A stretch of DNA of 64,000 nucleotides from Promethearchaeati archaeon SRVP18_Atabeyarchaeia-1 (lineage in GTDB: Archaea; Asgardarchaeota; Atabeyarchaeia; Atabeyarchaeales; Atabeyarchaeaceae), in the NCBI GenBank assembly GCA_037308085.1, contig CP147779.1, forward strand, positions 1,888,001 through 1,952,000, written 5' to 3'. This document shows, in pieces, positions 1 to 19,502 of the stretch. Positions within the stretch are counted from its first letter, which is position 1. Each line of letters opens with the position of its first letter. A program made the position numbers and the translations under genes. A model generated the notes under the pieces. That model was not told the DNA's origin, did not search any database, and saw nothing but the letters and a program-made list of their open reading frames with translations.

Positions 1-489
1 TCGAAAGTCGTTAGAACCTATCTGGATTGGTGCAAGGGCTTCCTCAACAAGCAGAAGGTCGTTGTAGTATACGACACTATGTGGGGGAGCACGGAGAAGA
101 TGGCTAGAGCTATAGTTGAAGGAATCAGAAGCGCAGGCGCCGAAGCTAAGCTGATGAAGCTGAGAATAACGGAGATGACAGATATTGTCACTGAAATCTT
201 GGATTCGAAGGCGGTGGTCGTCGGTTCACCAACGCTACACAACGAGATCTTCCCATCAGTTAGCGGTTTCCTAACCTACATATCAGGGCTGAAACCAAAA
301 GGCAAGGTCTGGAGCTTCTTCGGTTCCTACGGCTGGGGCGGAGGAGCGGTCAAGAAGATGACTGAAATTGCAGCCGCAGCGAAATTCGAAGTTAACGAGT
401 CGAGCCTAGAAGTCAAGTATATTCCAACGAAAGAAGAGCTCGAGAAGTGTGTTGAGTTCGGAAAGGAAATAGCGGGAAAGATCATCTAG
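1..489 (+). CDS. fprA: FprA family A-type flavoprotein (flavodiiron protein), C-terminal flavodoxin domain; 5' partial
   Basis: Frame open from base 1; VVVYDTMWGST, VGSPTLHN and FGSYGWGGGA flavodoxin motifs typical of FprA. Confidence 0.9.
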   Translation, partial: SKVVRTYLDWCKGFLNKQKVVVVYDTMWGSTEKMARAIVEGIRSAGAEAKLMKLRITEMTDIVTEILDSKAVVVGSPTLHNEIFPSVSGFLTYISGLKPKGKVWSFFGSYGWGGGAVKKMTEIAAAAKFEVNESSLEVKYIPTKEELEKCVEFGKEIAGKII

Positions 490-606
490 AGAAGACTTCC
501 AAGCTGAGTATTCTCCCCGATCTGGGACTACCGTCCTGGATCAGGGAACTCCCTCCGTTTTGCTGCGCCACAATAGCACCCCGGAAAAGGGTTCTCAAGG
601 GATCCT

Positions 607-2733
607 TCACTCCGACTTTCCCTTCAAATCCAATAGCTCGAGCATTCTCTGTACACTTGTGGTTGGGAGGCTACATTTGTAGCCTTGGCATACGTAAGCC
701 GTGGCTCTGTCTTCTTTGCTCGACAAGTCCCTTGTGAATTCAGCTAGTTCCTCTATCTTGGGCGCCTCTACCCCAGTTGGCTTGAAGATCTGCACTTTGT
801 TGGGGAGAAAACTGCTTCGAAGCGCCTTGAGCATCGCCATCATGTCTTCCGCGCCTCGATCACCGACAATGACTACCTCGGCTACTGGTCCTATGGCGAA
901 ATCCAGTGCAGTCAACAACTGCGTGTAAGCTGCGGGTGCTCTTGACATTGTGCCGGAAAGTGTGTGAATTACCCGAGATGCCCTATCTTCGAACTCAGGT
1001 TTCTCCGTCATGTGGGCTAGGTGGAGAAGGTTTAACGTTGCAACTGAGTTGCCTGAAGGATGAGCGCCATCGTAGGCATCTTTCTTTCTAACGATAACTT
1101 CTTCCGCATCGTCTGCGCTGAGATAGAACCCGCCGTTTTCCAGATCCCAAAAGTGTTTTGCAGTGTACTCCGTCAACTGGATGGCGGATTCCAGGTATCC
1201 TGTTTCAAAGGTTGCCTCATACAACTCCGTGAGGCCCCAGACAAGAAAGGCGTAGTCATCCAGGAATCCGGGTATCGCCGCTTCGCCGTCCTTAAAGCGG
1301 TGATAGAGCTTTCCCTTCGAATCGCACATCTTTGATAGAAGAAAATCCGCTGCACGTTTCCCCAGCTCCGAGTACTTTGGTTCATCGAAGGTTTGCGCCG
1401 CCTCTGCTAGCCCAGCAATCATCAGACCGTTCAGATCAGTTAGGATCTTGTCGTCTCTACTAGGGTGAATGCGTCTCTCTCGGGCGCTGAAAAGCTTGCG
1501 CCTCGCTGCTTCAAGTCTCTCCCTGAGTTCCCTTATCGGGATTCCAGTATCGGTAGAAGTTCTCTCAAGCGACTTGCTCATGCACAGTATGTTGTTCCCT
1601 GTATCTTTGTACGTAGTTTCATCAGGGAAATTCCCATTCTCTTGAACGTTAAAGACTGATGAGAAGAGTTCTGCTTCCTCCGGGGAGAGTATTTGTTTGA
1701 TTTCGTCTTTTCTCCAGAGGTAGAACTTCCCTTCTTGCCCTTCGCTGTCCGCGTCCACCGAAGTGTAGAATCCGCCTTGGGGTGAAGTCATGTCACGCAA
1801 GACGAAGTTCAGTATTTCATCTGCTGTTCTCTTGTATTCCTCTTTCTTTGTCGCCTGGTATGCCTCGGCGTACGCCATTGTGAGCGTAGCTTGGTCGTAG
1901 AGCATCTTCTCGAAGTGCGGTTGGAACCACCTTGAGTCCACAGAGTAGCGGTGAAAGCCGAATCCTACTTGATCGAAGATGCCGCCCAGCCGCATTGATG
2001 TGAGGGTTTTCTCAACCATCAAAAGCGCCTTATCGTAGGTCGTGCGTTTCCAGTAGCGAAGGAGGAAAGTCAAATGGTGAGGGGTCGGGAACTTCGGTGC
2101 ACCTCCGAAGCCCCCATGCTCCTCGTCGAATTCTGCTGAAAGACTATTATAGGCTGTATCCAGAGTCTCCTCCCCCGACTTCTCCTCTCCAGATGCTTCC
2201 AACGCGTATTCGGCTTTGGTGAGGCGCATCACGATTCCTTGGGCTGAATTGACGAGTTGCTCTCTCTGCGAGTTCCAGAGCTCCCTTATTCTTGGGATTA
2301 GCTCTTTCATTCCCAATCGTCCGAACTTGGCTTCTCTTGGAATGTATGTCGATGAAAAGAAGGGTTTCTTGTCAGGGGTCATGATTATCGTGAGTGGCCA
2401 TCCGCCGCTTCCCGTCATCATTTGGCAGATGGCCATGTATGTGCTGTCTATGTCGGGTCTTTCTTCTCTGTCGACTTTTATGGATACGAACGAGTCATTC
2501 ATGAGCCGCGCAACTTCAGGATCTTCGAAGGACTCCTTTTCCATTACGTGGCACCAGTGGCAGGTGGAGTAGCCGATGGAGAGAAAAATCGGCTTGTCCT
2601 GTTTCTTCGCTTCTTCGAAGGCTTCAGATCCCCAAGGATACCAGTCAACTGGGTTGTGTGCATGTTGTAACAGGTAGGGGCTTTTCTCGGATATCAGGCG
2701 GTTGACTCTTCCATTCTTTGATTCCTCGTTCAT
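607..2733 (-). CDS. Thioredoxin-domain protein, YyaL/SPATA20 (DUF255) family
   Basis: [49 protein letters not shown]. Confidence 0.95.
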
Positions 2734-2764
2734 TTAGGCAACCTTCCTTGCGCATCGGAACAGT

Positions 2765-3520
2765 CTACTTGACGTTACTCATGAAGACGCATATCTTGGG
2801 AGGCAGTAGCGTGGAATCGATGCCTATTCTCTTGTCTGTCAGTTTGATTGGCGCTCCTCGGACGATGACGAAAGGTATTCTCTCGTTGGATTCCCCCATT
2901 AGGAGCTTTGCTGCTGAGGAAATGTCGTCGATCACTGATTGGTACGTTACGCGCAGCGTTCTCCCGTAAAGGTCTTTCTTGCCAACGTAATTCCTAGCGG
3001 GCTCTAGTCCAGCAAACCCGAGCGCCACCCCTATTGTTCCCCTTCTCCCGGGAAGCAGCCCGGAGTCTGCAATAATGATGGCAACTCTCTTTCCTGTCTT
3101 GTCCTCTATCCTTCTCTTGAAGCTCCAAGCTGACTCATCGGAATCCGCTGGTGGGAGTATGTACGAGTCCCCTGGAGAGTTGGCGACATCGATGCAGGCG
3201 TTGACGCACGGGAAGCCCCTTCTTACTGCCAGCACGTATCCGGGTGATCCTGCAAGAACGGAATCAGACTCGTCCAAGATCAACTGCATCAAGGATGATG
3301 GGAGGGCAAGCTTTCTCCCCATCTCTTCCGCCTTCCTCGAGGCCACGACGTCTGAGACTTGGCGAACCCGCTTCTCAGTTACGGAAACGATTTTAGAAGC
3401 AACGACGATTACGTCTCCATCTTCGAGAGGGAGTTGCATCCTCCCTATCGAGCTGAGGAAGATTTCTGAAGCATCGTCACTCTCAGTGATTAAGGGCGTT
3501 TTTACGGCGAAAACCTCCAT
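2765..3520 (-). CDS. cofE: Coenzyme F420-0:L-glutamate ligase (CofE family)
   Basis: DGDVIVVASKIVS, NACID, IIADS..R.GTIGVALG, GESNERIPFVIVRG; start placed at MEVFAVK (ORF track start 3589). Confidence 0.85.
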   Translation of the reverse strand: MEVFAVKTPLITESDDASEIFLSSIGRMQLPLEDGDVIVVASKIVSVTEKRVRQVSDVVASRKAEEMGRKLALPSSLMQLILDESDSVLAGSPGYVLAVRRGFPCVNACIDVANSPGDSYILPPADSDESAWSFKRRIEDKTGKRVAIIIADSGLLPGRRGTIGVALGFAGLEPARNYVGKKDLYGRTLRVTYQSVIDDISSAAKLLMGESNERIPFVIVRGAPIKLTDKRIGIDSTLLPPKICVFMSNVK

Positions 3521-3767
3521 TGCACTATCCAAGAGAATCATGCACCTCCAGGCGGAAGTGATCATGCTTACAGCAAGATGGTGATACAATCATCAGTATT
3601 TAGAGTTCGCCTTTGGCGCTTATCTAACTCTCCAGAAGTTGCCCTCGTCCTGGAATCACTGCGAGAGTCGCACGCCGATCGCAACTCTTTTACAAAGGCG
3701 CCCCTAGTAGGATGGGTATCGATTAGACTGTTCCCAGCAGGTTCTTCTAGTGAGGTGAAACCGTGAT

Positions 3768-4235
3768 ATGGTCCGAGTGCTAAATCCTATCTTCACTGCG
3801 GTGGGAATCTGCTCCCTGCTGAGTTCGCTGGACAAGATGGGAGTGACCCCGACGCTTGTCGCCCGCCAGGCCTCAAAGGTGATTGGCCCCGTGTTGGCGG
3901 ACTTCGGAAAGATGACACTAGGCACCACGAACATGGAGGCGCCGACCCTGAACGAGTTTGTCGTAGGTCTGAGAATGGCTCTAAAGATGGGTGGGCTTGC
4001 AGACCCAGATGCTCTAGAAATGGTCAAGACCGAGGATGGCTTCACAGTCAAATGGGTTGACTGCGGGCTAAAGGACATGGCCAATGCTGCTAAGCTGTTC
4101 GGGTACAAGGACTGTCCGCTTTGTCTTCCTGGCGTCATAGTCGCTGGTCTGCTCGGTGCCCTGCATGTCGCAGACGTCAGCGATATGAAGGTTGAGAGAA
4201 ACGGAAATACGTGCCTAATGCACATTCAGATCTGA
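3768..4235 (+). CDS. Hypothetical protein, V4R/L-domain-like with Cys ligands
   Basis: 155 aa ORF with good upstream GGTGA; DC...CPLC...TC pattern in the C-terminal half resembles V4R-like small-molecule-binding domains. Confidence 0.5.
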   Translation: MVRVLNPIFTAVGICSLLSSLDKMGVTPTLVARQASKVIGPVLADFGKMTLGTTNMEAPTLNEFVVGLRMALKMGGLADPDALEMVKTEDGFTVKWVDCGLKDMANAAKLFGYKDCPLCLPGVIVAGLLGALHVADVSDMKVERNGNTCLMHIQI

Positions 4236-4430
4236 CATGGGGCACCATTTTTCGGCCAGCCAACTCTCAACTATCTTTTCATCAAATACCGGTCGGGTGT
4301 TGCGTGGTCTCATCAGACACTACCCTGAATCGCATGAAGAGTGGGAGTTATCAGATCCAGTTGTCCCAGGAGTCTTGATGGCAAATGTAATATCAGGCGA
4401 CGAACACGAGGATAGGAGGGTGACATTGAT

Positions 4431-5396
4431 TTGCGTATCAGGGCTCTTGGGCTGCATTTGACGGATCGCTGTAATGCTCGCTGCGAGCACTGCGCCTTTC
4501 ACTGTGGACCTCAAGGCAAAGGCGTGATGGCTTTAGGTGAGGCAAAAAAGTACCTTCGACAAGCCACGGAAGAAGGGGCAGACATGCTCTGCATAAGTGG
4601 CGGCGAGCCACTTCTCTTTCTCAGCACTGTAACCAGCATCGCTCGAGAAGCAAGAAGGCTCCGAATGCAGAGTATCTGGGTTTTCACTAATGCTCACTGG
4701 GCGGCGGATCGTGAATCGACGAGGAGAATACTGGTACGGCTCAAGAATGCCGGTGTCGGCAGACTCTGCCTAGGCGCTGATGGATTCCACCGGCCATTCG
4801 TTGCGACCGAGAGAGTTCGTTCGGCCATGCTTGTTGCTGCGGACTTGGGTTTGGAGCTTACTCTAGATACCCGCATCATGGGCGTGACGCTCCAGGAAGA
4901 CAACCAGATCAACAAGTCAACCGTGGAGATCCTTCGTGAACTCGGAGATTTGAGAAACATCGAAACGTGGCGCGGCCCCCCGCTCTACGTCGGCCGCGCA
5001 GCGGAGGTCCTGCCCCAGAAAATGCAGAGAGAGCCAACCTTTGTTGATGGGGCATGCATGGGCCCATGGGCGGGTGGAAGCTGGGTAAACCCAGTGGGCG
5101 TTGACATCGACTCGCATGGGGAAGTCACGCTATGCCCTGGCATAAGCATTGGCAACGCAAGAACGCAAACACTGAGCAAGATCCTGTCTGACTACAAGCC
5201 ATCGCAGCACCGCATAATCCGTGAGCTCACGGCAGGCGGACCTAAAGGCTTGTGGCGCCTGGCTTCCGACCTGGGCTACAGGCACCAAGGAGGTTACTTG
5301 AGTGCATGTCACTTGTGCTACGACGTGCGGAAGTTCATCCGATCAGATTATCCAGCGGAGCTGGCACCTATTTCCTGCTACGAAGAGCTTTGTTAA
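4431..5396 (+). CDS. Radical SAM protein with C-terminal Cys-rich (SPASM/twitch-like) region
   Basis: CNARCEHC, SGGEP, TNAHWA, C-terminal C..LCPG and CHLC. Confidence 0.9.
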   Translation: MRIRALGLHLTDRCNARCEHCAFHCGPQGKGVMALGEAKKYLRQATEEGADMLCISGGEPLLFLSTVTSIAREARRLRMQSIWVFTNAHWAADRESTRRILVRLKNAGVGRLCLGADGFHRPFVATERVRSAMLVAADLGLELTLDTRIMGVTLQEDNQINKSTVEILRELGDLRNIETWRGPPLYVGRAAEVLPQKMQREPTFVDGACMGPWAGGSWVNPVGVDIDSHGEVTLCPGISIGNARTQTLSKILSDYKPSQHRIIRELTAGGPKGLWRLASDLGYRHQGGYLSACHLCYDVRKFIRSDYPAELAPISCYEELC

Positions 5397-5490
5397 GGGT
5401 TTTCCAGTCGAGCTCTTGAGCGCCACATTGTGGACATTCTTCGGACGCTATTTGAATTCTCTGCCTGCATCTTGCGCATTCTTTGGTTTT

Positions 5491-5754
5491 CTACCATTTC
5501 GGTATCACCGAGTTTCGCTCGATATCTTTTCGCCGTTCTGTGATCCTGTCATAGACATCCGAGTCTTCATCTGCGCGGAGTTCGACCGTTAGGAACTTGG
5601 GACATGTGTAAACGTCCATGGGTGCGGCTTCCTCCTCCCCCCAGCGCCATATTGGAAGGTCTATCCTGAAGGGAAACCAACCCATATGCAGCATCTCCGT
5701 GCTGCAGATTCGACAGTTCGGAGAAGACAGCCTATCAGGATATTCTCCCATCAA
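5491..5754 (-). CDS. Small Zn-ribbon-like protein, possibly decaying
   Basis: CRIC...YTCPKF..VELRA; the fourth Cys is replaced by Phe. Confidence 0.5.
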   Translation of the reverse strand: MMGEYPDRLSSPNCRICSTEMLHMGWFPFRIDLPIWRWGEEEAAPMDVYTCPKFLTVELRADEDSDVYDRITERRKDIERNSVIPKW

Positions 5755-5857
5755 ATCATCAGCCGCTTCTAGAAACGTAGAAATTCATGGAAGTCAACCA
5801 CGCTTCTATTCGGGGCGTTGGCAGCTTGTTCGGTCCCGCCTGCTCCCCCGGCCTTAG

Positions 5858-6706
5858 GCTCTCTGGAGAGCAAAGCTCAATAGAGCAAACCTAAGCAAAG
5901 CCATACTCCGGAGAGCAGATCTTGGCGAGGCAATTCTCTTGGGAACAAAGCTAAGCGGAGCAAACCTGAGCCAGGCAAATCTATCTGGCGCGAATCTAAG
6001 TGAAGCAGATCTCAGCGGAGCAAACCTAAGTGAAGCAAACCTTGAGAAAACGGTGCTAGTTGAGGTGGACCTAAGAAAGGCATCCCTTACGAATTGCCGG
6101 GTTTACGGGATCTCTACATGGAACGTGGATCTGGAGAATGCGACTCAGTTGAATCTGATCATCACCCGTAGCGCTGAGCCCAAGATTACGGTGGACTACC
6201 TCAAGGTTGCGCAATTTGTGTACCTGCTTCTCAACAACAGGGAGATCCGGGAGGTTATTGACACTATCACTTCAAAGGTCGTGCTAATTCTAGGTAACTT
6301 TTCATCAGATCGGAAGGCAATCTTAGATGCGATCCAGGATGAACTACGTAAGCACAACTACTTGCCCATCTTGTTCGACTTCGGGAAACCTGCCAACCGG
6401 GATCTCACCGAAACGATCTCTATTCTCGCACACATGGCGCGATTTGTCATAGCTGATATTACGGATGCCGAGAGTGTTCCCCAGGAGTTGGAGCGCATAG
6501 TCCCAGAGCTACCATCGGTTCCAGTTCAACCGCTGTTGCAGGCCCCAGCCAAGCCGTACGGCATGTTCGAGCACTACCCGCGGTATCCCTGAGTTCTTGA
6601 GATACGTAGGTATGAGAGCCCTGGCAAGTTGCTGGCGTCCCTCCCAGAAAAAGTGATCGCTCCTGCCGAGGCGAAGGCGAAGGAGCTGCAGAAGAGACAG
6701 CAGTGA
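5858..6706 (+). pseudogene. Pentapeptide-repeat protein with C-terminal alpha/beta (TIR/NDT-like) domain; 5'-truncated with an internal TGA
   Basis: A(N/D)LxxA repeats run in frame from 5858 with no start codon; TGA at 6590-6592 is followed in frame by VLEIRRYES...EKVIAPAEAKAKEL to a stop at 6704-6706. Confidence 0.8.
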
Positions 6707-6887
6707 CCGGACAATTCTGCGCCGCCAAAGTCATTGCTCGTGATACAACTGCGGAACTGTGGCAGTGGTTCACTTTCATGGTAGTCCCTTCAACCCCATA
6801 AGGTTTCGCCATCAACGTACCTCTATAGTTGACTTGGGATGCATAGTCTATGAGTAAGCAATTGGCGTGCACGGCAGGTGGGGCGCG

Positions 6888-7061
6888 ATGGTCGTCAACG
6901 AGGAGTGGTGGAGGGGCTTCGAGGACTGCGCCGAGATTGTCATGGGCATCCTCGACGTTGCCCGGGACCTACCGGCCGCCAAGCATAATGTGGATAAGAT
7001 GCTTGCCTTAGTGAAGGAGAAGAAATTCTCGAAGATTAAGGAGGAGCTGGGTCTACTCTGA
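6888..7061 (+). CDS. Small helical hypothetical protein (copy 1 of a pair)
   Basis: RGFEDC...KEKKFSKIKEELGLL; similar to 9644..9850; GGTGG upstream of ATG. Confidence 0.7.
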   Translation: MVVNEEWWRGFEDCAEIVMGILDVARDLPAAKHNVDKMLALVKEKKFSKIKEELGLL

Positions 7062-7072
7062 CGGTTCACACA

Positions 7073-8884
7073 TCATGTATGAGAAGACTTTATCCTGCTT
7101 GCCATCTCGTTGCCGATAGTCTCTTCACGTGCCTTCAGAAATTCGTCGTAATTATTGTTCTTCATAGCATCGTAAGCTCTCTCTTCAATTAAGTGCGTTT
7201 TGAGAACAATCTTCACTTTTTCCTCCGAGCCCAGTTTTTGTTTCATGAGATCTATGTATTTGGATGGTTTCTTGTTTTGTATGATGCTATTGTTTGTTGA
7301 TTCTTGAATCAAAGTTCTGTTCAGTATAGAGTTTTCTTTGGTGAGGGTGATTCCTGATTTCTTTGGAAATAGATGATGATCGTTCAATTTGACAAGCTCG
7401 ATTGACTGTCCATTATAGAAGTCCAGCGCCCCTTTTAGGGCTATCAAATTGAGTATCGCCTTGTATATGGCACCTTTCGAGGTGTCTCTCAAATTTATCT
7501 CTCTTATTCGGCTTTCAGCTTCCTTGACTACTTCAGGCACTCTTAAGTTGTCTCCAAACCAGTCCCTAACTTGGTCAAAATCCTGTTTTATGGCTGTATC
7601 ACTTGCTCCTGCATATCTTTCTGTGAATATAGAACTCCAATACCAAGTGTCCAACTTCTTGAAGTCATTAGGAGCCTTGCAATGTTCAAGTATTGCCGCC
7701 AATGTTGCTACTACAGGCCTGTATGGTAATAGGTTTGGTCTGATAACGCCATATCCAGTCTGGGTGTTTTGTAGTCTTCTCAAAGAATGATTGAGCAAAC
7801 TACAAGATGAGTTCCAGTTGTCCTTGTCAATTTTGAACACTTTTGAGTTCACTAGAACTTTCTTCTTCACTTCTAGAGGATTGGGTTTTTGACGCAAAGC
7901 CATAATTTGAAGTATGATTTTTGGGTATTCCTCATCATCTTCTTCGGAGAACTTATTCACTTCACTTTCTGTGTCATCGAAATACTCTTTCCACCAATCT
8001 CTGAGGTTTATTTTCTGTTTGAAGAATACGGCGGTGGCAAGAGCAAACACCGAAAGCTCCACGCCTGTTCTATTAATCCTCTCGAATATCTCTGCGACCT
8101 CATAGAACTGTTTGTTTTCAAGAGTCAACGATGGGATTTTGAAACCAAACCAATGATTGAAAATATTTCTTATGGTCGCTTTTCTCTCTTTGATCTCGCC
8201 CCAAGGTTTGCTCTTCTTAGAGATGTAGTCTCCAAAATCCTCCAACCAGCTCTCTAGTTCGGAACGTGCTCCTAAGTTGGCAAAGGGTATCCGTCCATTT
8301 TCGTAGCAATATTGCTTGAATTCCTTCTTCATTAACAAATTCCCAAAATTGCCAGCCCAGTCTAGCAAGTCCTTGAAAGAGTATTTCTTAGCCCCCGACC
8401 CCATGTCTACTTCCATGTTTTTTGTTCTGTCATTTTCCGATATTGATTCGATCGAATCTTCCCAATCTTTTTGGGCGAGTCTTTCGTTGACCTTTACAAA
8501 ATATCGGATAGGGTAAGCTGCCCCTTTAGGTTCAACCTTTGGGGGACTGTAGAGAGCGTAGAACAAGGCAGTCAATCTTTGCTGTCCATCGAGCACCGCT
8601 CTTTCAACATTTTTCTCCTCTGGTTCTGATGGTAACTTTGTGTTGACTTTTTCTACTCCCTCAAAATACCGAACTCCAAAATCAAGGGTTTCAGCACGCC
8701 TTAAGAAAAGAAGGGTGCCGACGAAATAGCCGTTTAGAACTGAAACTAATAGACTTTTTATGTCAGGATTTGCCCACACAAAACTCCTTTGAAATTCCGG
8801 AAGGACACACTTTCCTTCACAGATTTCTCTAATTGGTCCTAGAGCTTCCTCAAGTTTCGGATAGGGTTCAGCCATAACACTCAC
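7073..8884 (-). CDS. DUF262 (GmrSD-like, ParB-like NTPase) protein with C-terminal DUF1524/HNH-like region; putative modification-dependent restriction enzyme
   Basis: LPEFQRSFVW, VLDGQQRLTAL, FERINRTG, C-terminal DHHLFP...N..N; visibly AT-richer than flanks. Confidence 0.9.
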   Translation of the reverse strand: MSVMAEPYPKLEEALGPIREICEGKCVLPEFQRSFVWANPDIKSLLVSVLNGYFVGTLLFLRRAETLDFGVRYFEGVEKVNTKLPSEPEEKNVERAVLDGQQRLTALFYALYSPPKVEPKGAAYPIRYFVKVNERLAQKDWEDSIESISENDRTKNMEVDMGSGAKKYSFKDLLDWAGNFGNLLMKKEFKQYCYENGRIPFANLGARSELESWLEDFGDYISKKSKPWGEIKERKATIRNIFNHWFGFKIPSLTLENKQFYEVAEIFERINRTGVELSVFALATAVFFKQKINLRDWWKEYFDDTESEVNKFSEEDDEEYPKIILQIMALRQKPNPLEVKKKVLVNSKVFKIDKDNWNSSCSLLNHSLRRLQNTQTGYGVIRPNLLPYRPVVATLAAILEHCKAPNDFKKLDTWYWSSIFTERYAGASDTAIKQDFDQVRDWFGDNLRVPEVVKEAESRIREINLRDTSKGAIYKAILNLIALKGALDFYNGQSIELVKLNDHHLFPKKSGITLTKENSILNRTLIQESTNNSIIQNKKPSKYIDLMKQKLGSEEKVKIVLKTHLIEERAYDAMKNNNYDEFLKAREETIGNEMASRIKSSHT

Positions 8885-8927
8885 ATCCCATAGAAATCCT
8901 CCCCGCCTCCGAGTCGAACTCTATACC

Positions 8928-8982
8928 TACCTGATCGCTGGGCACGTGATATATTCGTTGCGGAGGCATTGCGATATCCACA
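8928..8982 (-). repeat. 55-bp conserved element, copy A, with promoter-like core; upstream of the DUF262 gene
   Basis: 51/55 identical to 12806-12860; minus strand reads ...GCAACGAATATATCACG... (BRE/TATA-like). Confidence 0.85.
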
Positions 8983-9272
8983 AGTCTCTTTAATCGCGTA
9001 TCATCCCCGACTATGCCATGGCATAAGGAGCGTACCAGAGAAACAGGGGCCTGTGTGGGACTCGAGTTGGAGCGGGTTCCTCGGGGACCTCAGAAAGGAA
9101 GTTGAGCTGTGTTGAATAGAAAGAAAGAGGATTGAGGTGGCTAGCCCACCTTGAGCTTTCCTTTGATCTGGTTCATACTGCCCCTGAGGTGCTTGAGGTT
9201 CTGCCCAATTTCGTCGACATCTCTTGTGACGAATATTGTCTTCATGTAGAGGGCTAAGAGAGACATGTTCAC

Positions 9273-9500
9273 TTAAGTAGGAGCAAAGAACTCGACATAA
9301 CCGCAATTATCGCATTTGTAGGCACGAAGTGATTTTCCTGTCCGAGCTTCAAACTGTACGTCTCGTTCTCCTCGAAGGCCCTCTTCAGTTAGTTCCTCAT
9401 CTTTTGCACTATGCCACCGAACTATGCGATCAAAACCTATTACACCCTCATGCATCGCAAACCCACATTTTGAACAATGCTTGTCTTTTACCATAAACAT
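9273..9500 (-). CDS. Small Zn-ribbon protein
   Basis: CSKCGFAMHEG...LRAYKCDNCGYVEFFA. Confidence 0.75.
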   Translation of the reverse strand: MFMVKDKHCSKCGFAMHEGVIGFDRIVRWHSAKDEELTEEGLRGERDVQFEARTGKSLRAYKCDNCGYVEFFAPT

Positions 9501-9643
9501 CCTCTATTTTGACAGGTGATTTCCCCATCAAAATATGTTTCGCATTCGTTGCGAGATTCACACATGGAATTCGGATACCTATTGCGGCTTTGCCCCAAAG
9601 AGAGACCCTCACTTCTGCATAGGACTCTTGCACCTCAAATAAC

Positions 9644-9850
9644 GTGGTTGACCATTCTTGTTCTGTCGTGGATTGGACGGCGAGAGAGGCTTCGGGGTAT
9701 CGGCATGGGTTCGAGAACTGCCTAGGTCTGGTGGAGGACACCATCGGGTCCGTGAAGAGGCTGAAACAGGTGAAGAGCTACCTGCTGACGGTGCGGGCCA
9801 GCATGAAGGAGAAGAACGTCGTCCGGATAAGAGGGGACCTCGGTCTCTGA
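9644..9850 (+). CDS. Small helical hypothetical protein (copy 2 of a pair)
   Basis: HGFENC...KEKNVVRIRGDLGL aligns with 6888..7061; start uncertain. Confidence 0.65.
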   Translation: MVDHSCSVVDWTAREASGYRHGFENCLGLVEDTIGSVKRLKQVKSYLLTVRASMKEKNVVRIRGDLGL

Positions 9851-9859
9851 TACCCTGGA

Positions 9860-10963
9860 TTACTTTCCCCAGATTCTCTTTTTGATGGCCGATAGGACCC
9901 CCATCCTCCTATTCGTGTTTGTTACTGCTCTGAGCTGCAATGCTTCCTCAAGCGTCCTTGGTCTTATGAATTTCTTCTTTAGGCCCTCGTAGGGTGGAAA
10001 GGCGCCGTGTGTGCCCAAGACTCTTCTCGCATCGGCTACCATCTCTAGTTGTTCAGGGCTCCAGTGGCGACCAACAAAGCTGTCCTTCTTGAGAGCATAT
10101 CGGCCTTTAACCGGCTGATACCTCATTGGATAGGACACTACACCCCACTCCATCGCCTTCTGGAGACGATGCAGCAAGTCTTCCGGGGTATCATTGAAGT
10201 TGTAGAGGAGATAGACCAGGATGTCTCTCGGCCTCACGCCTGCCTGGATCAGCATTTGTATGCCGTCTTCCACTTCCTGTTCCTGCTTTGGTCGATCGAA
10301 GGCAGTCCTTATCATATAGGTTCTGAGTGATGCGAGAACCTCAGCCTTTTCCGGGGTCATTAGCCTCGTGTCTATTCCCTGGTTGAAGTCGACTGGCAGA
10401 TTCAAACTGCGGATCTCAAGGAGAATCTCCTTCCAGTAGGGGGAGGCCAGCATATTGTTGTCCCAGAGGATGATCTTCTTGTGGTCGGGACAGATGAGAT
10501 CCTTGATCGTCTTCCTGCATTTGAACTCCGGCTCCAGTTTCGGGACTGCGCAGAAGGGGCAGTCGTTGATGCATCCTCTTGAACTGAAAACTATGCTTGC
10601 ATTCCAGTCCGGAACCAGGGAATAGTCAGGTATCATGCCTTCGGCTTGCTCGAAGAGCCCCCTATGGATTGTCGCTCCAGACTTCGCTGCATGCTCCGGC
10701 ATGAGCGTTGCGTATATGCCGCCTAGAATGATTTCAGCCTTCGGATATTGCTGCTGATAGAATCTGACAGCCTCGTGCACTGGCTTCCAGGCGTATGTGA
10801 AGAGACTCGTCACATAGATATTGTCTGGGGTCCACGGCGCAGCGACGCATCCCTTCTGAAAGCAGACCTCATCGCCAAGCATCCTGTGATAAGTGGAGAT
10901 CTTCAGAAGCCCAAGAGGAGGGAACCTAGAATAATAGTTTGGCTGAACCAAGAGGGTGCGCAT
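9860..10963 (-). CDS. Radical SAM protein with N-terminal B12-binding-like domain
   Basis: PPLGLLKIS, ILGGIYATL, SRGCINDCPFC, WDNN, DFNQG, YPMRYQP. Confidence 0.9.
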   Translation of the reverse strand: MRTLLVQPNYYSRFPPLGLLKISTYHRMLGDEVCFQKGCVAAPWTPDNIYVTSLFTYAWKPVHEAVRFYQQQYPKAEIILGGIYATLMPEHAAKSGATIHRGLFEQAEGMIPDYSLVPDWNASIVFSSRGCINDCPFCAVPKLEPEFKCRKTIKDLICPDHKKIILWDNNMLASPYWKEILLEIRSLNLPVDFNQGIDTRLMTPEKAEVLASLRTYMIRTAFDRPKQEQEVEDGIQMLIQAGVRPRDILVYLLYNFNDTPEDLLHRLQKAMEWGVVSYPMRYQPVKGRYALKKDSFVGRHWSPEQLEMVADARRVLGTHGAFPPYEGLKKKFIRPRTLEEALQLRAVTNTNRRMGVLSAIKKRIWGK

Positions 10964-11004
10964 AAAGGGTATATGTCTCCGTGATCTTTATTTGTCTTGC
11001 TTCC

Positions 11005-12768
11005 TCATGGAGGGCATTTCTGTGACAACTCAATCATCCTGTATACCAACCCTACTGTTGCAGAGAACATAGTCATCACATTACATCGCTCAGCTTTGGT
11101 CAGATCTTCGAACCATTTGAAGGAATCGCTTCCCTTATCATGCTTCTGAGCGTTGATGAATAAGTCCTGAAGCGCTTGTATTGTCACACCTAATTCCGGA
11201 TTTCGTCTCGTCTCTTGTGGGTCCGTTGAGGAGCCGCTTATCGTCAATTTTCGAGTCGAATGAGAAATTACTTTTTCCCACCCATATGCGGCTTTGGAGA
11301 GACCAAATATTTCATTAGTGCTCAGACCAGTCTTCTTCTTGAGTAGCTCCACAATCTTATCCAGCATGCTTGTTTCAGGCTGTAGCTTTCCTTCCGGCGT
11401 GAGCTTGTCGAAGTCGCTTCTTACAGGTTTGGGCAAAAGACCTAACATACTCTTCTGCAGCTCCTTTGCTTTGGCTAGATCATCTTCTTCAGGCAGTTTC
11501 TTCTTGATCTCGGCTTCCAGTGTCGCAACTTCCTTAGCAGCTTGTTTGCACTTGTCATCTATGACCTGCTTATGAGGCTGAAGCGCAGGGTCTGTTGCGA
11601 AACTTCTGCCGCTACTCATAGCTTTCTTTGCTTTCTCAAGACATTTCTTGGCTGAATTGGTATTTCCCTTTGCCAAATGGTGCTTTGCCTTCTCGATCGA
11701 TTTCGCCTGGTTCTTATCACTTTGGTACCGATTACTGATCTGGAACTCATCCACGAAACTACCAACCTGCTGGAAGAACGGAGCAACAAGCTCGGTACTC
11801 GGCACAAAGTTGTTCCTTGCTGCATTCTCAACTATCTTCGGAGTAACTATGTGGATCTCTCCATATTGCCATTCACTATGCCCACTTGAGAGGTTCTCTA
11901 TGAAATGTTCATCACCGATAGTGAAACCCTTCTTCTTGAAAAAGATGCCCTTGTTCGGCTCGCCTAGTTCCTTATTCTCCTTGTTTGTCAGAAACCAGCC
12001 GAAGGCCACAATTTCGCCGTTTACCTTGAACTCCTTGGGGACAAGATCATTCACAAGGAATATATCGACATCGTCAGGCGGCCTGGATATCGGGTCGCCT
12101 TCAAACTCAATCACAACTTCAGGTAGCTCAACGTCGTGCTCTTTCAGGTAATCGTTCACCTTGTCGGCAAGCAAGAATTTCTTGTTGAAGGGTGCGGGAA
12201 CAGTTCGAGAAAGGTACTTGATTATCTTCTCTTTCTGGAACATAGATTTATGTGTTGTCAGGATTGAGCAAAGTCTTACAACCGTGAAGTGATCTTTGAC
12301 AGACTCTCCTGAGTCAAGATTTGTTTCCTCGATTTCCCCCGTTGACTCTGATAACACATCGGCTGCCGATCTATTGGTTCCATAACTTTGGCGCAGCTTC
12401 TTGCAATCTATTTCTATTCTCAGTTTCTTCTCATTCTTCTTCTTGGTTGTTATAACGATCTTCTCGCAGACTGGGACGCCGCTCCAGATGCCGATACCTC
12501 TCCACCCAACATTTTCAGGTGGCTTGTACGATAGTCCAACGCTCAAAGCCTCTTTCAGCTTGGCTTTATTCATTCCGCTGCCATCGTCGTGAATGACCAG
12601 ATCAAGTGATTCTGGACTCTTAGTCTCGAAGTAGATCTTCACCTTCTTTGGATCGGCGTCCAGACTGTTCTGGACATATTCCCTCAGACAATTCAGATTA
12701 TCAGAATAGAGGCCTTCTGTGATAGCTTCAAGTAGCTTTGCACCAAAATTGTCAATCTCAAACTTCAC
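11005..12768 (-). CDS. GHKL (HSP90/MORC-like, HATPase_c) ATPase with C-terminal helical domain
   Basis: LREYVQNSLDA, IHDDGSGM, GWRGIG Bergerat-fold motifs, then GEIHIV..NAARNNF (S5-like) and a coiled region. Confidence 0.9.
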   Translation of the reverse strand: MKFEIDNFGAKLLEAITEGLYSDNLNCLREYVQNSLDADPKKVKIYFETKSPESLDLVIHDDGSGMNKAKLKEALSVGLSYKPPENVGWRGIGIWSGVPVCEKIVITTKKKNEKKLRIEIDCKKLRQSYGTNRSAADVLSESTGEIEETNLDSGESVKDHFTVVRLCSILTTHKSMFQKEKIIKYLSRTVPAPFNKKFLLADKVNDYLKEHDVELPEVVIEFEGDPISRPPDDVDIFLVNDLVPKEFKVNGEIVAFGWFLTNKENKELGEPNKGIFFKKKGFTIGDEHFIENLSSGHSEWQYGEIHIVTPKIVENAARNNFVPSTELVAPFFQQVGSFVDEFQISNRYQSDKNQAKSIEKAKHHLAKGNTNSAKKCLEKAKKAMSSGRSFATDPALQPHKQVIDDKCKQAAKEVATLEAEIKKKLPEEDDLAKAKELQKSMLGLLPKPVRSDFDKLTPEGKLQPETSMLDKIVELLKKKTGLSTNEIFGLSKAAYGWEKVISHSTRKLTISGSSTDPQETRRNPELGVTIQALQDLFINAQKHDKGSDSFKWFEDLTKAERCNVMTMFSATVGLVYRMIELSQKCPP

Positions 12769-12805
12769 TTACTCAATCCCCCTCACTTCCTTGCTGAACT
12801 ATAGT

Positions 12806-12860
12806 TACCTGATCGCTGGGCGCGTGATATATCGGTTGCGGAGGCATTGCGACATCCACA
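12806..12860 (-). repeat. 55-bp conserved element, copy B, upstream of the GHKL gene
   Basis: 51/55 identical to 8928-8982. Confidence 0.85.
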
Positions 12861-13136
12861 GGATTTTCGAATCTGAGACCATGCTCGGCTACGACACAGG
12901 GACCCAACTTAGAGTCCTTCAACATCTCAGACTACGCGGATTCTCTTAATGTAGATGACCCTTGCGTAAAGTCCGGCGCTTATGAGATTTGGATAAGTGA
13001 CGTGCTCAACAGGCGCACTTGCCAGTCTGATGGTTTTTCTTCGACTGGATCACCTGGACAAGCCAGAACAAAAAAGAGAGAGGGGGAAGACAGGACTCAC
13101 TAGTCTCCAGCTCATCTTCCCTCTGCGATATGTTCA

Positions 13137-13667
13137 CTAGTAGGGGCCTGGAACGAAGAAAGACAATACTGGGAAGTCCCAGTAGTGAACGCCACTGCCG
13201 TCACTGTAAACCCATGATATTACTGCCTTGTAGTTGCCGCCGCCACCACCAGGTCCGTAGGTATATGAGAAGCTTTTGTCGGCTGGTCCATCAAGCCCAA
13301 CGTACTCATTCTGGTTTGTAGCAGGATTCCACATCCAATTGTAGTCCCTGGCAAGCTTGGAGTAGATCACTTGATTGTAGTCCTTCTGGATGACGCCTAA
13401 TATCATTGATCTCAATTTCCACTGTGGGGAATTGCCATCGTAGTTGAGGATTATGTGCCACTCGAACTTCACCGTGTAGTAGTAGACGGGCCCTGATTGC
13501 CAGACGTTAACGGTAATTCTACCCCATGCGTAGTCATCGTTGAGCCAATGGCCCTGTTCCTGAACCAAGGTAGTTGCTGATGCCTGAGTTACTGCGCCCG
13601 CTGAAAAGGTTAGCAAGAAGATCGATAGAACGACAAAGACCATGATGCTCTTACTCATTCTATTCAT
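13137..13667 (-). CDS. Secreted beta-rich hypothetical protein
   Basis: Signal peptide MNRMSKSIMVFVVLSIFLLTFSAGA; aromatic-rich body; GGAGG before the ATG at 13667; T-rich tract downstream. Confidence 0.7.
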   Translation of the reverse strand: MNRMSKSIMVFVVLSIFLLTFSAGAVTQASATTLVQEQGHWLNDDYAWGRITVNVWQSGPVYYYTVKFEWHIILNYDGNSPQWKLRSMILGVIQKDYNQVIYSKLARDYNWMWNPATNQNEYVGLDGPADKSFSYTYGPGGGGGNYKAVISWVYSDGSGVHYWDFPVLSFFVPGPY

Positions 13668-14068
13668 ACTTGTCCTCCACTCAACTGCTTTTCTGTTTCG
13701 TTCTCTTTCTGCCCCTCTTCTGGGGCTAGGCGGTGACCGCCTCCAAAGCATTCAGCTTTGGTTTTGCCCCAATGCATAGGCGGAGCCATCCCCTCCCGGC
13801 ACGGGTCCACCCCTACAATTCTATCCCCTGACGTATAATATGGCGTTTTTCAGGCTGTTATACTTTACTGTTATACCGCTAAACCGCAAGCCTTGAGTAA
13901 GGACTATTCCGTAGACGACAGCAAGGGAGAAAGAAAGAACTTGATAGGAGGTGACAAGAAGTCCTTAATTCGGCAACGCCTGCGCGTTGACCGACAAATT
14001 TATTTAAGATAACAGTGGATATCTTAGCACGCTCTACTATGATAGGGGGTGTAATAGAGGGGTTGAAA

Positions 14069-14281
14069 ATGCCAGTTGAATCACGTGAAATACGCATCGT
14101 CATACCGCCTGAGATAAATGAACTCTTTGCCAAGCAGCCACACATGATCTTCAAAACACATCCTATTCCTGGCCTGTGGCCAGTTACTCTAGAGATTCTC
14201 AAAAACATCGAGGCCCTGAAAAAGCTAGCAGCCAGCAAGGAATTCAACGAGAAGTACGACATCGTAATAATACCGAAGTGA
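14069..14281 (+). CDS. Small (70 aa) hypothetical protein directly upstream of a radical SAM gene
   Basis: TATA-like TTTATTTAAG near 14000; GAGGGG before ATG; MPVESREIRIVIPPE...HPIPGLWPV. Confidence 0.7.
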   Translation: MPVESREIRIVIPPEINELFAKQPHMIFKTHPIPGLWPVTLEILKNIEALKKLAASKEFNEKYDIVIIPK

Positions 14282-14360
14282 GTAGATTGACAAATGGGTG
14301 CAATTGTGGCACCCATTCTTTTGTTGTTTACTCTGCAAACTGAGTTAACAGGGTGGATAC

Positions 14361-15413
14361 ATGTCATCCGAACTCGAAGCACCGTTCTTAAAGAACATCG
14401 GTTTCATGCTCACCTACAAATGTACGATATCGTGTCCACATTGCATTGTTGAGGCTGGACCTCACCGTAAGGAAGAAATGGATCTTGATATGGCTCTGGA
14501 CTGGGTCAAGCAGGCAAGTACCTTTAGAAATGGACATATTGTCGGTCTAGCGTTGACTGGGGGCGAGCCGTTCTATGACCTGGAAAAACTCGCGAAGATC
14601 TCCGAATTTGCCAATAGTCTAGGGTTTGTTGTTTCGGTCGTAACTAACGGCTTTTGGGCAACAACAAGGGATGTCGCGCAAAAGACCATCGCAAGACTTC
14701 CAGCAATTCAGATGATTTCACTTAGCACAGATACTTACCACAGAAGGGCGATTCCACCTCAAAATGTCAAGAATGGCATTTGGGCGGCCAAGCAGCTTGG
14801 GCGGCTGTATAACATTGCGGTCTGTACAGACAACGAAGAGAACCCAGAGTTCAAGGAGATTATTAATGACTTGCGTGCGAATGGGGAAGCCGAAAACACT
14901 AGGACCGCCATAACATACCCTGTAGGCAGAGCGCAGAGGTATGAGGGTCATCTTAATTTTGAGATTGAGGCTGAACCTACGGTCGGGGCGTGTACCATGG
15001 CGAGTTCACCAGTGGTTTTTCCAGATGGGAAAGTAAATGCTTGCATAGGACCAGTGCTGACCTTGCCCTCAGCTCACCCACTCTTCCTCGGGAACTTGCG
15101 AATAGATCGGTTGAATGATATATTAGATCGGGCTGAAATGAATCTTTTCCTACAAACAATACGTGTATGGGGACCACAGAAATTGCAGTCGCTTTTGAAA
15201 GAGCATGGTTTAGGCGATTTGCTCCCCCGAGAGTACATTAAAGACTGCATATGCGATTGCTGCTACAAATTGCTCTCTGACCCGCGGATCGTTGACGCTC
15301 TTAAGAGCATTCTGCAGGATGAGAAGATGGTGAGGATCATAGCTTATGCGAGGGTGTACTATCTTAAAGAGACATTTATGGCGGAACGACTTGACTTGGT
15401 GACAAAGGGATAG
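14361..15413 (+). CDS. Radical SAM protein (same subfamily as 4431..5396)
   Basis: CTISCPHC, TGGEP, TNGFWA, C-terminal C..ACIG and CICDCC. Confidence 0.9.
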   Translation: MSSELEAPFLKNIGFMLTYKCTISCPHCIVEAGPHRKEEMDLDMALDWVKQASTFRNGHIVGLALTGGEPFYDLEKLAKISEFANSLGFVVSVVTNGFWATTRDVAQKTIARLPAIQMISLSTDTYHRRAIPPQNVKNGIWAAKQLGRLYNIAVCTDNEENPEFKEIINDLRANGEAENTRTAITYPVGRAQRYEGHLNFEIEAEPTVGACTMASSPVVFPDGKVNACIGPVLTLPSAHPLFLGNLRIDRLNDILDRAEMNLFLQTIRVWGPQKLQSLLKEHGLGDLLPREYIKDCICDCCYKLLSDPRIVDALKSILQDEKMVRIIAYARVYYLKETFMAERLDLVTKG

Positions 15414-15498
15414 TCTTTGGTTAACCCGAGCTAATGGGCTTCTATGTGTGTTTTGGCTGCCGAGCGCTCGCCTAGCCTGTGGCACAGAAAGTTCGTGG

Positions 15499-15529
15499 AG
15501 AGGTTTTCTCTTTTCCGGTCATCCCAAGC
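15499..15529. repeat. 31-bp perfect direct repeat, copy 1
   Basis: AGAGGTTTTCTCTTTTCCGGTCATCCCAAGC, identical at 16739-16769. Confidence 0.9.
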
Positions 15530-15548
15530 TCGCCCGCTTATGAACACT

Positions 15549-16391
15549 CTAGCTCCCGGTGGCCTTGTCCTTGAGTTTCGCTATCAATACTGTGAACCAT
15601 GGAATGACGCAGATGGCGAACGGAATGAGGCACAGTATGACAATGCCAACATTGTATAACAGATTGGTCGAAAAATCGGTGAAGATGGCCTCCACAATAT
15701 GAAGAAGGTAGGCTGTCCACAGAAAACCTACGAAGAAGACATTAGCTCTAAAGATGTGCCTTGTCCATCTCATGAGTCGACTCTTCTCGTAAGGTTGTTT
15801 TAGTGTGAGGTGGCAAGAGAGCCCCAATACAAGTTCATATGCGAATATGTGTGGATAGCTTTTCTCATTTAACAGTTGGACACGTCTATAGAAGAGGAAC
15901 CAGGAAAGAACAAACACCAAAGAGGCTGTCATCAGGATATAGGAAGTCAAATCTGTAATCCTATTGATGACGGTATACATGAAGAAGAGAAAGGAGACTG
16001 GAACGAAAAGTGAACTCATCGTGAACATCTGATGACTTCTTTCATCAATCTGTTGGCTGAGAAACTCATGATTCCTCCAATACTTCTTGCATAGAAGACT
16101 GCGGTCCGGTAGCCTTGCCATCCGGGCGGCGAATTTGCGGTAGAGCGATTCCACATTTTGCTTCTCCTGTTTCCTTAGCGACTTCAGGTTTTCTGCTGCT
16201 ATCTCTGCGAATACCCATTCCATCCCTCTCAGGTTTTTGGCTTTCTCTTCTTTTGCCTCCTTGATCAGCGTTGAGATTTCGGCGGGCGCGTCGGCTACCT
16301 TCCTGGTCCTTCGATTCATGCCTCTTCCTCTTTGCCACGTTCGGATTCCCTTTTCAGAGTCATTGTCTTCCTTGCTTGTTCCCGTCGTCAT
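15549..16391 (-). CDS. Hypothetical multi-pass membrane protein with charged N-terminus
   Basis: Basic/helical first ~115 aa followed by about 4 hydrophobic segments. Confidence 0.7.
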   Translation of the reverse strand: MTTGTSKEDNDSEKGIRTWQRGRGMNRRTRKVADAPAEISTLIKEAKEEKAKNLRGMEWVFAEIAAENLKSLRKQEKQNVESLYRKFAARMARLPDRSLLCKKYWRNHEFLSQQIDERSHQMFTMSSLFVPVSFLFFMYTVINRITDLTSYILMTASLVFVLSWFLFYRRVQLLNEKSYPHIFAYELVLGLSCHLTLKQPYEKSRLMRWTRHIFRANVFFVGFLWTAYLLHIVEAIFTDFSTNLLYNVGIVILCLIPFAICVIPWFTVLIAKLKDKATGS

Positions 16392-16450
16392 GATCCCCCC
16401 ACATGTGAGTCAGATTTTTCATTCGACCTCTCCTTCTCGACAGGGATCCT

Positions 16451-16639
16451 CTAGATTTCGGTCAGCCTCTCAGCGGTTCCTTTCCACGTCTGCCTCATTT
16501 TCTCGATCCTGTCGAAGCATTCGTTAACGCGCCCGCTCACGAGGGTCAGCTCGTACTGCAGCTTCTGAACCTGCTTCTTGACGAGTCCAAGGTCAAGTTC
16601 CAGACCGTGTACTTTGTCTTTCTCATTCATCCCCCTCAC
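16451..16639 (-). CDS. Small coiled-coil hypothetical protein
   Basis: Heptad pattern LELDLGLVKKQVQKLQYEL; GGAGGG upstream. Confidence 0.55.
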   Translation of the reverse strand: MRGMNEKDKVHGLELDLGLVKKQVQKLQYELTLVSGRVNECFDRIEKMRQTWKGTAERLTEI

Positions 16640-16738
16640 CCTCCTAAGTAGATATCAGTCTGTTGCCAGTGTCTTTCCTATCCCAGCTAACTTCCCAGCG
16701 GAGGGTGCTTGGTCTCCAATCCCCCCTCTTCCCTGAAT

Positions 16739-16769
16739 AGAGGTTTTCTCTTTTCCGGTCATCCCAAGC
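16739..16769. repeat. 31-bp perfect direct repeat, copy 2
   Basis: Identical to 15499-15529. Confidence 0.9.
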
Positions 16770-16817
16770 ACCCTCATTCGCACAATTCAGTTAGATGAAT
16801 CACTCTTTTGCATCAGT

Positions 16818-19390: not shown

Positions 19391-19502
19391 TCGGAACTCG
19401 GCAGCGCAGCATGCTCGGAAGATCTCCTTGAAGGAAAAAAAGGGTGATGTAGTGGGGGTGTGACTGGCACTCCTCTTTTTATGTTTATCGAAATAACGCA
19501 AG

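Follow-up and report, generated by a model that had tools for sequence, protein, structure and literature searches.

We analysed a 64,000-nucleotide window of the archaeal contig CP147779.1 (positions 1,888,001 to 1,952,000), from the genome of Ca. Atabeyarchaeum deiterrae group 1, in which a set of genes and a short intergenic sequence appears twice in succession between window positions 5491 and 12860. Each set comprises a zinc-ribbon (Zn-ribbon) gene, a small gene that we call hel, a cargo of one or two genes convergent with hel, and a promoter-like element upstream of the cargo. Both sets lie within window positions 4236-18421, which is accessory DNA: a variable island of about 14 kb (14.2 kb), bounded by two conserved genes, at a conserved chromosomal site. 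Our preferred reading, which we hold with modest confidence, is that this island is a mosaic: each of two horizontally acquired operons of defence type would be flanked on one side by a portable promoter/operator module and on the other by a hel gene derived from mobile genetic elements (MGEs), the Zn-ribbon gene being a resident of the locus. The three parts of the apparent unit (Zn-ribbon, element and hel) would then have separate histories. A first-pass annotation made from the sequence had instead seen in them tandem relics of a single archaeal mobile-element family with a swappable defence slot.

The tandem layout itself is as that annotation described it. Open reading frame (ORF) listing, repeat search and pairwise comparisons recover the following parts, given here with positions in the window and strand:

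5401-5754, minus: Zn1, a member of the locus-resident Zn-ribbon family, given as a read-through translation with an in-frame TAG at 5491-5493
6888-7061, plus: hel1, 57 aa, a two-helix protein from an unnamed family, with the same sequence as P0002 (family profile E 2e-19)
7073-8884, minus: cargo 1, a GmrSD/DUF262-type protein and candidate type IV restriction enzyme (Pfam GmrSD_N E 9.9e-24, 85 bits, residues 26-287)
8896-9008, minus: element copy 1 (nhmmer 1.5e-30), with core 8921-8982, TATA-like box 8947-8955 and a Shine-Dalgarno (SD)-like GGAGGA near 8897-8905
9273-9500, minus: Zn2, a 75-aa DUF6487 zinc-ribbon protein (Pfam DUF6487 9.3e-8, 32.8 bits, cut-off 24)
9644-9850, plus: hel2, 68 aa, hel family (family profile E 9e-14), in a clade with P0003/P0004/P0008
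9860-10963, minus: cargo 2b, a radical SAM protein with a B12-binding domain (weak Pfam B12-binding/Radical_SAM matches)
11005-12768, minus: cargo 2a, a GHKL (HATPase_c_3) ATPase, first gene of its operon (Pfam HATPase_c_3 3.5e-16)
12776-12886, minus: element copy 2 (nhmmer 6.7e-29), with core 12799-12860 and TATA-like box 12826-12834, included like copy 1 in a four-copy alignment

Unit 1 thus runs from Zn1 (5491-5754 when read to its TAG) through hel1 and the GmrSD_N gene to the first element core, and unit 2 from Zn2 through hel2, the B12-type radical SAM gene and the HATPase_c_3 ATPase gene to the second. The convergent stop codons, which had been placed about 10 bp apart, are separated by 11 nt in unit 1 (hel1 TGA at 7059-7061, GmrSD stop at 7073-7075) and by 9 nt in unit 2 (hel2 TGA at 9848-9850, radical SAM stop at 9860-9862). 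The cargos are mutually unrelated, as had been noted: GmrSD_N on one side, HATPase_c_3 together with B12/radical SAM domains on the other.

That the island is variable follows from its flanks, which with its first gene are:

3768-4235, plus: left conserved flank gene, 155 aa (66% amino-acid identity to L025 15784-16248; the genes upstream of it are collinear)
4431-5396, plus: YydG-like radical SAM/SPASM protein, first gene of the island (Pfam Radical_SAM, Fer4_12 and SPASM; NCBIfam rSAM_yydG 4e-19)
18422-19390, plus: right conserved flank gene, a GMP-synthase-like PP-loop ATPase (Pfam GMP_synt_C 4.4e-21)

The gene blocks 79-4235 and 18340-22683 of the window are collinear with a complete genome from the same family (L025, probably Atabeya-2), in which 0.7 kb separates the two blocks and contains a single 107-aa Zn-ribbon gene. 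The right flank protein is 79-80% identical in that genome and in LC30, a metagenome-assembled genome of a congener. There, four tandem Zn-ribbon paralogs come after the GMP-synthase-like flank, and a 61% identical ortholog of the radical SAM gene at 4431-5396 adjoins the far end of this array. The island is absent from the same-family complete genome and mostly absent from LC30, so that conserved core-gene flanks enclose different content in three related genomes. Horizontal acquisition is indicated by a cargo GC content of 41-45% against 49.6% for the genome, by a TnpB copy and a solo insertion sequence (IS) end, and by the truncated Zn1 and pentapeptide genes. No phage or plasmid genes turned up among the scanned island ORFs, the window island contains neither att repeats nor replication genes, and the four tyrosine recombinases encoded in the genome are all outside the window, the nearest being at 2,015,132. 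An origin at a tRNA/att site was rejected, the window being devoid of tRNA genes.

The genome can be placed with the help of AATTAACTTAT, which occurs at exactly two sites, separated by 10,867 bp and with a tyrosine recombinase immediately within them, and which fits Yucahu-i of Ca. Atabeyarchaeum deiterrae group 1 (PMC11529989). Fourteen integrated MGEs have been reported for this genome, and two defence islands are counted among the 18 elements of both Atabeyarchaeum genomes, Atabeya-1 and Atabeya-2; the main text of that publication makes no mention of the element, of hel or of the Zn-ribbon array (PMC11529989).

The Zn-ribbon gene is the ancestral, chromosomal resident of this locus, locally amplified and now decaying. 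It occupies the site without hel or element in both LC30 and the same-family complete genome and, being a chromosomal resident of the locus in all three genomes, it is not part of an MGE scaffold. Zn1 matches the family profile with one TAG inside, its closest relative being copy 3 of LC30 (54% identity); past the TAG, the zinc ribbon of the C-terminus resumes at 5401-5490 and is well preserved (KECARCRQRIQIASEECPQCG), and the TAG reflects either a recent nonsense mutation or read-through. The claim that both units start with a Zn-ribbon ORF is right as far as presence goes. The two genes are not alike by BLASTP (E 4.7), however, and are linked by profile alone, a profile of Zn1 relatives reaching Zn2 by hhalign with a probability of 79% and E 1.7e-5. 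The DUF6487 (PF20097) gathering cut-off is passed by Zn2 but not by Zn1 or its relatives in LC30 and the sister genome, and GC at third codon positions (GC3) is 0.32 in Zn2 against 0.59 in Zn1. In LC30 (L023, contig C183, 1429-3217), the four tandem paralogs are two-domain proteins, with a DUF6487-like N-terminal domain and a double zinc ribbon, and one has a membrane segment inserted. This four-copy array corresponds to the same site as the single copy of the sister genome and the island described here.

The element presents a different distribution. Its two window cores (8921-8982 and 12799-12860) are 90% identical over 62 nt and 78% over 98 nt, about 110 nt being alignable, and a 24-nt core pattern is found only at these two sites in the window, with 0 expected from 100 shuffles. 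A profile search with nhmmer returned three full copies in the genome, the third at 1655379-1655489. A fourth full copy is present in LC30. All four copies lie in accessory DNA, the LC30 contig that carries one having no counterpart in this genome, and in all four a gene starts 35-130 nt downstream on the same strand. These genes differ in each case: the GmrSD gene, the GHKL ATPase gene, a 31-aa ORF ahead of a 417-aa ORF, and the gene of a small membrane protein. In gene orientation, the conserved block reads TGTGGATRTCKCAATGCCTCCRCAA-N3-ATATATCAC-RYGCCCAGCGATCAG, followed after about 25 bases by a G-rich SD-like motif. The core contains an imperfect inverted repeat, of which the right arm is the TATA-like box; this box lies 62-67 nt before the start codon in both window copies (about 65 nt in copy 1). 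In copy 2, the SD-like GAGGGGGA stands 17 nt ahead of a GTG start, and across the genome start codons are preceded by SD-like motifs most often at -18 to -11. Between the two species, identity of the core is about 90%, against 61-76% for orthologous proteins, which suggests selective constraint on the element. From this anatomy, together with position and cross-species conservation, we infer a portable promoter/operator module. The shared promoter postulated earlier is thereby upheld in its putative anatomy (a TATA-like box, an SD motif and a downstream start in 4/4 copies), but not as a fixed partner of hel, since the element is found elsewhere without it.

Several other identities were considered for the element. 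A coding sequence was ruled out, as indels between copies break every frame. A structured RNA was rejected: Rfam gave nothing at the gathering threshold and one chance-level match at a relaxed E-value, and when each window copy was folded on either strand, together with the extension described below, z-scores ranged from -2.1 to +2.1 and no structure was shared. A widely dispersed regulon motif was likewise discarded, nhmmer giving just the three full genomic copies and a weak partial site at 2323013-2323057.

The inverted repeat in the core invites a further hypothesis, namely that the element is a recombination or attachment site, comparable to an attC site or to the hairpin of an IS200/605 end, at which cassettes such as the segment 8921-12798 are gained or lost. 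The two copies are indeed direct repeats 3,878 bp apart that bound a 3.9-kb segment, and TnpB-type IS copies or fragments are present in both element-bearing islands. However, the repeats are 90% identical rather than identical, the consensus stem is weak (-7.6 kcal/mol, with no informative covariation), three of the four core-element strands that were tested fold, as single strands, no better than shuffled sequence, and the element is unlike IS ends. There is no recombinase nearby, and each of the four copies has a same-strand gene with an SD motif just downstream. Furthermore, two contigs from other samples that also carry hel1 are 100% identical to the window, so that no strain polymorphism of the units was detected. 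We therefore regard a recombination site as very improbable.

The third genomic copy lies in another island (L026, C1:1650000-1663000), where we observed DndB/DpdB-like and HNH genes, HEPN and Schlafen/AlbA_2 proteins, 396-aa and 417-aa proteins and a small PD-(D/E)xK-like ORF; a tyrosine recombinase gene at 1662341-1662886 stands 6.7 kb from the element. At element copy 1, one stretch of the window is common only to this third copy, and a short ORF lies next to it:

8990-9131, plus: extension found again at the third element copy only (genome 1655257-1655446, 77% identity over 192 nt)
9141-9272, minus: 43-aa ORF directly after Zn2 in the ORF list, which may not be a gene

The frame of the extension is broken by a 1-nt indel, and there is a weak match to the end of a gene that precedes hel on an MGE contig (L010). 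The extension is possibly a relic of the 3' end of this gene, of which no full-length homolog was found in the genome. The 43-aa ORF has no Pfam match and no paralog in the genome.

Other observations concern the surroundings of the element. A 71-nt segment between the third copy and its cargo (C1:1655510-1655580) is 93% identical to positions 12726-12796 of a relative's contig (L028, discussed below), just outside a TnpB IS end; it is single-copy in the genome and not conserved as an ORF. The weak partial site at C1:2323013-2323057 consists of TTGTGGATCTCACAATGACCTCGCAACG and then TTTTTATC and contains a TTGTG-N5-CACAA dyad. An operon of 4-5 paralogous genes of about 195 aa each begins some 150 nt downstream of this site, which may share a regulator with the element. 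Finally, a 7-codon mini-ORF, MGCECYG (8863-8890, minus strand), has the start codon for which the spacing of the SD-like motif in element copy 1 is most suitable. Its stop overlaps the GmrSD ATG (ATGGCTGA), which may mean translational coupling.

The third part, hel, is a real, unnamed family of small proteins that belongs to the mobile gene pool of archaea. Both hel1 and hel2 are detected by a family profile from which they had been left out (the E-values above are at Z=1e6), and compared directly they share 30% identity over 50 aa (E 6e-7). When 1.8 billion proteins were searched with the profile, 46 representatives came back, mostly 55-78 aa long. They carry the motif Y-x-R-G-[FW]-[ED]-D-[CA]-L and, towards the C-terminus, K-E-K-K...E-L-G, and a two-helix hairpin is predicted as their fold (pLDDT 75). 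We found no match in Pfam, PDB sequences or PDB folds, nor in INPHARED phages, PLSDB plasmids or IMG/VR, and a word-indexed protein search was empty. The family is carried by 5 of 400 Asgard genomes. It resides mostly on MGE-like contigs, and a few copies are chromosomal. Among the MGE-like contigs, one of 53 kb carries a STIV_B116-like gene, two others ParB-like genes and a further one a methyltransferase gene. On the MGE-like contigs, hel overlaps or abuts a convergent small gene, usually of the winged-helix (wHTH) type.

At its 3' end, hel has the properties of a sharp recombination junction. GC3 is 0.78 in hel1 and 0.75 in hel2 against 0.44 in the GmrSD gene, a jump that takes place across 11 bp between hel1 and GmrSD. 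Moreover, hel2 is 72% identical at the amino-acid level to a copy on L028, the contig of a relative whose CTP synthase is 84% identical, and nucleotide homology with this copy stops at the hel stop codon.

This contig also offers a parallel to the organization of the window. The hel2-like gene of L028, which has a premature stop, is followed after 24 nt by a convergent Rce1/CPBP operon, a 50-nt module and a second hel 3' relic. The module has a counterpart in the window, as has the IS of L028; these features, and the gene between the two parts of unit 1, are:

5763-5868, minus: 3'-terminal piece of a TnpB-type IS, standing alone (83% identical to the L028 IS end over 106 nt)
5858-6592, plus: pentapeptide-repeat gene, 5'-truncated at the IS fragment (Pfam Pentapeptide 3.9e-17)
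13849-13898, strand not assigned: second conserved intergenic module, or module B (94% over 50 nt to L028 9756-9805)
16827-18170, minus: TnpB-type IS copy, C-terminally truncated, at the right end of the island (66% amino-acid identity to L028 TnpB, residues 18-436 of 466)

In the window, module B contains the direct repeat CTGTTATAC-TTTA-CTGTTATAC and lies upstream of a 204-aa gene (13137-13751, minus strand). In L028, it lies upstream of an operon that is unrelated to the 204-aa gene and convergent with the hel copy; a partial copy is found at genome C1:98390-98422. In this lineage, then, different accessory genes are accompanied by short conserved modules upstream and by hel boundaries, but not in the form of one fixed unit. 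At L028 7260-9164, the hel2-like gene stands between a dCTP-deaminase-like gene and the convergent gene for an Rce1/CPBP ('Abi'-type) membrane protease; both families have known defence members.

As for the IS sequences, the end represented at 5763-5868 recurs at full IS copies elsewhere, the TnpB copy at 16827-18170 has a weak OrfB_IS605 match, and about seven copies of this TnpB-type family are present in the genome (the window and six other sites), with proteins 65-70% identical to the relative's copy. The pentapeptide gene had been described as a pseudogene, which is plausible: it lacks a 5' end and abuts the solo IS fragment, and its repeats extend upstream past the first start codon, to a stop at this fragment.

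Do the parts travel together? The first-pass annotation had itself proposed that its scheme would fail if the small ORF and the repeated element did not co-occur elsewhere, and no locus besides the window combines them: hel is lacking at the third genomic copy of the element and at the LC30 copy, and the element is absent from every other hel locus compared. A single archaeal mobile-element family in which promoter element, hel and Zn-ribbon ends bracket a swappable defence slot consequently appears unlikely to us, even if it would account for several facts. Both hel genes and two of the three elements bracket adjacent foreign operons with the same stop-to-stop geometry, hel is MGE-associated, L028 repeats the succession of hel, convergent cargo and conserved upstream module with a second hel relic, and the third element copy lies in an integrase-bearing island. 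Yet the element was not found outside the genus, since a scan of species genomes of the Genome Taxonomy Database (GTDB) returned the LC30 contig alone and two scans of JGI metagenome contigs gave a single match, attributable to chance. The Zn-ribbon gene is chromosomal, as shown above, hel2 clusters apart from hel1, the composition of hel and cargo differs sharply, and the window island is without integrase. The partner of hel elsewhere, furthermore, is mostly a small wHTH gene and not a defence gene. The notion of a modular slot survives in part, supported by the foreign, defence-like cargos and by the parallel arrangement in L028, where however the upstream module is a different one and no fixed unit can be recognized.

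An ancient in-place tandem duplication of [Zn - hel - gene - promoter] might also be envisaged, followed by replacement of the cargo, with the promoter maintained by selection or gene conversion while hel and Zn diverged. Order and orientation of the parts are identical in both units, and at this same site the Zn family readily amplifies in tandem, LC30 having four copies. Since the core is constrained across species, the value of 90% identity for the two window elements does not date a recent duplication. However, hel2 is 56-72% identical to copies in other organisms or on MGE-like contigs and only 30% identical to hel1. In a maximum-likelihood tree, hel2 forms with P0003, P0004 and P0008 a clade with support 100/99 that excludes hel1. 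That hel2 groups in this manner with metagenomic copies, when the elements are 90% identical, makes a duplicated unit unlikely. The Zn genes that stand at the site in LC30 and in the same-family complete genome without hel or element, and the GC3 difference between Zn1 and Zn2, argue in the same direction, and we judge this scenario rather improbable.

In the mosaic that we favor, the cargos would be defence genes acquired horizontally, a statement made at the level of gene families. Their defence-like nature, already proposed, is borne out by Pfam and PADLOC matches for GmrSD, by weaker matches for the GHKL ATPase, and by a DISARM-like context for the radical SAM. Cargo 1, with a GC content of 41% against 49.6% for the genome, has the N-terminal DUF262/ParB-like domain of GmrSD proteins and matches PADLOC models PDC-M55C (1.9e-27, residues 247-594) and HEC-05 (4.8e-23). 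Its C-terminal region has no Pfam match to the DUF1524 His-Me nuclease domain; a DHHLFPK motif is visible in the translation. Cargo 2a matches the NCBIfam BbrUII/HgiDII N-terminal region (3e-12) and, weakly, MzaB. Matches to defence models are strong for GmrSD and, for the GHKL ATPase, weak (MzaB and restriction enzymes); the radical SAM has no PADLOC match, and the other island genes are not defence-like.

The radical SAM protein of cargo 2b belongs to a large archaeal family (4,095 matches), with homologs 50-78% identical and named B12-binding radical SAM. The loci compared with the window gene include L037 5340-12500 and L034 2187-6168. In Archaeoglobus neptunius, the radical SAM gene directly precedes genes for a DISARM-like helicase, PLD and DrmE_C. 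On three contigs, the radical SAM gene follows a pair encoding 375-aa and 557-aa proteins, the latter with a HerA-like Walker B motif. Conservation of the HATPase partner was considered and rejected, the 557-aa neighbor of the closest radical SAM homologs being unrelated to the GHKL ATPase of the window. These changing neighbors, DISARM-like genes included, support a defence-linked role for the radical SAM, without thereby showing that the cargo-2 pair is conserved; the protein at 9860-10963 may be a defence-accessory enzyme with changing partners.

How would such a mosaic function? We propose that the element drives whatever lies downstream: the GmrSD gene, the GHKL-ATPase/radical-SAM operon and, in the other defence-like island, a third operon. 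Its inverted repeat, in which the putative TATA-like box is embedded, would give way to a leader of about 40 nt in which a Shine-Dalgarno motif lies, and one regulator could control all three element-bearing operons jointly. At the other extremity of each operon, the constant stop-to-stop arrangement of hel with a convergent gene suggests that the hel 3' end marks the junction where foreign cargo joined. Transcription of hel would probably run antisense into the 3' end of the cargo, and could act there as a brake or switch.

Several points weigh against this proposal. The antisense action of hel is its weakest step. The promoter role of the element and its direction are deduced from anatomy, and in the genome as a whole a TATA position signal is not clear. 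No regulator was identified for the element, the four copies known all come from one genus, and the inverted repeat could equally be a recombination site. Strikingly, the only two hel genes that the genome has, and two of the three elements, are found around a single pair of neighboring operons. This bracketing is not explained by separate histories or by chance, and some link between hel, cargo and element remains.

One may speculate further. Variable Atabeyarchaeia islands might be built from a small toolkit of portable promoter/operator modules (the element, as element A, and module B) and a hel end-cap, which together would form an integrase-less platform for capture, expression and co-regulation of foreign defence genes, with hel as off-switch. 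We consider this broader scheme improbable as it stands. If it were true, hel would switch off its neighbor by convergent transcription or as a protein, as it maybe does against wHTH repressors on archaeal MGEs.

Known systems provide partial analogies. Defence islands and variable hotspots between core genes have been described for bacterial and archaeal pan-genomes. The island resembles such chromosomal hotspots in its conserved flanks, in content that differs among three genomes, and in its foreign-composition defence-type genes, IS and pseudogenes; it departs from them in that one and the same promoter-like module stands at two neighboring operons, both of which abut a member of an unnamed small-protein family. 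Unlike in defence islands, part of its content (RiPP-type radical SAM genes, the pentapeptide gene) is not defence-like. The hotspots of P2/P4 prophages and satellites also place variable defence cargo between conserved neighbors. Here, however, there is no prophage or satellite, the neighbors are chromosomal genes, and no integrase lies in the window. The scaffold parts do not co-occur elsewhere, so that the same brackets around another cargo were not encountered, the layout of L028 having a different module.

Integron cassettes are promoterless and carry a 3' attC site, and integrons possess an IntI integrase with attI. Like an integron array, the island has tandem unrelated cassettes, each with a short repeated element; unlike one, it has no integrase and only two cassettes, and the repeat lies 5' of the cassette, with TATA- and SD-like motifs and a weak stem. 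WYL regulators of the BrxR/CapW type are encoded within each defence system and bind their own promoter. A common cis element upstream of different defence systems would permit joint control in a comparable fashion, but no regulator gene accompanies the element.

With bracketing parts that co-occur nowhere else, a cargo-slot reading should not serve to nominate new defence genes by position. The observations are of value for other reasons. An element that precedes three unrelated defence-type operons and is conserved across species would offer a testable route to a defence regulon. The hel family marks tight convergent gene boundaries, both on archaeal mobile elements and in these islands, and the radical SAM family keeps company with different defence ATPases and helicases.

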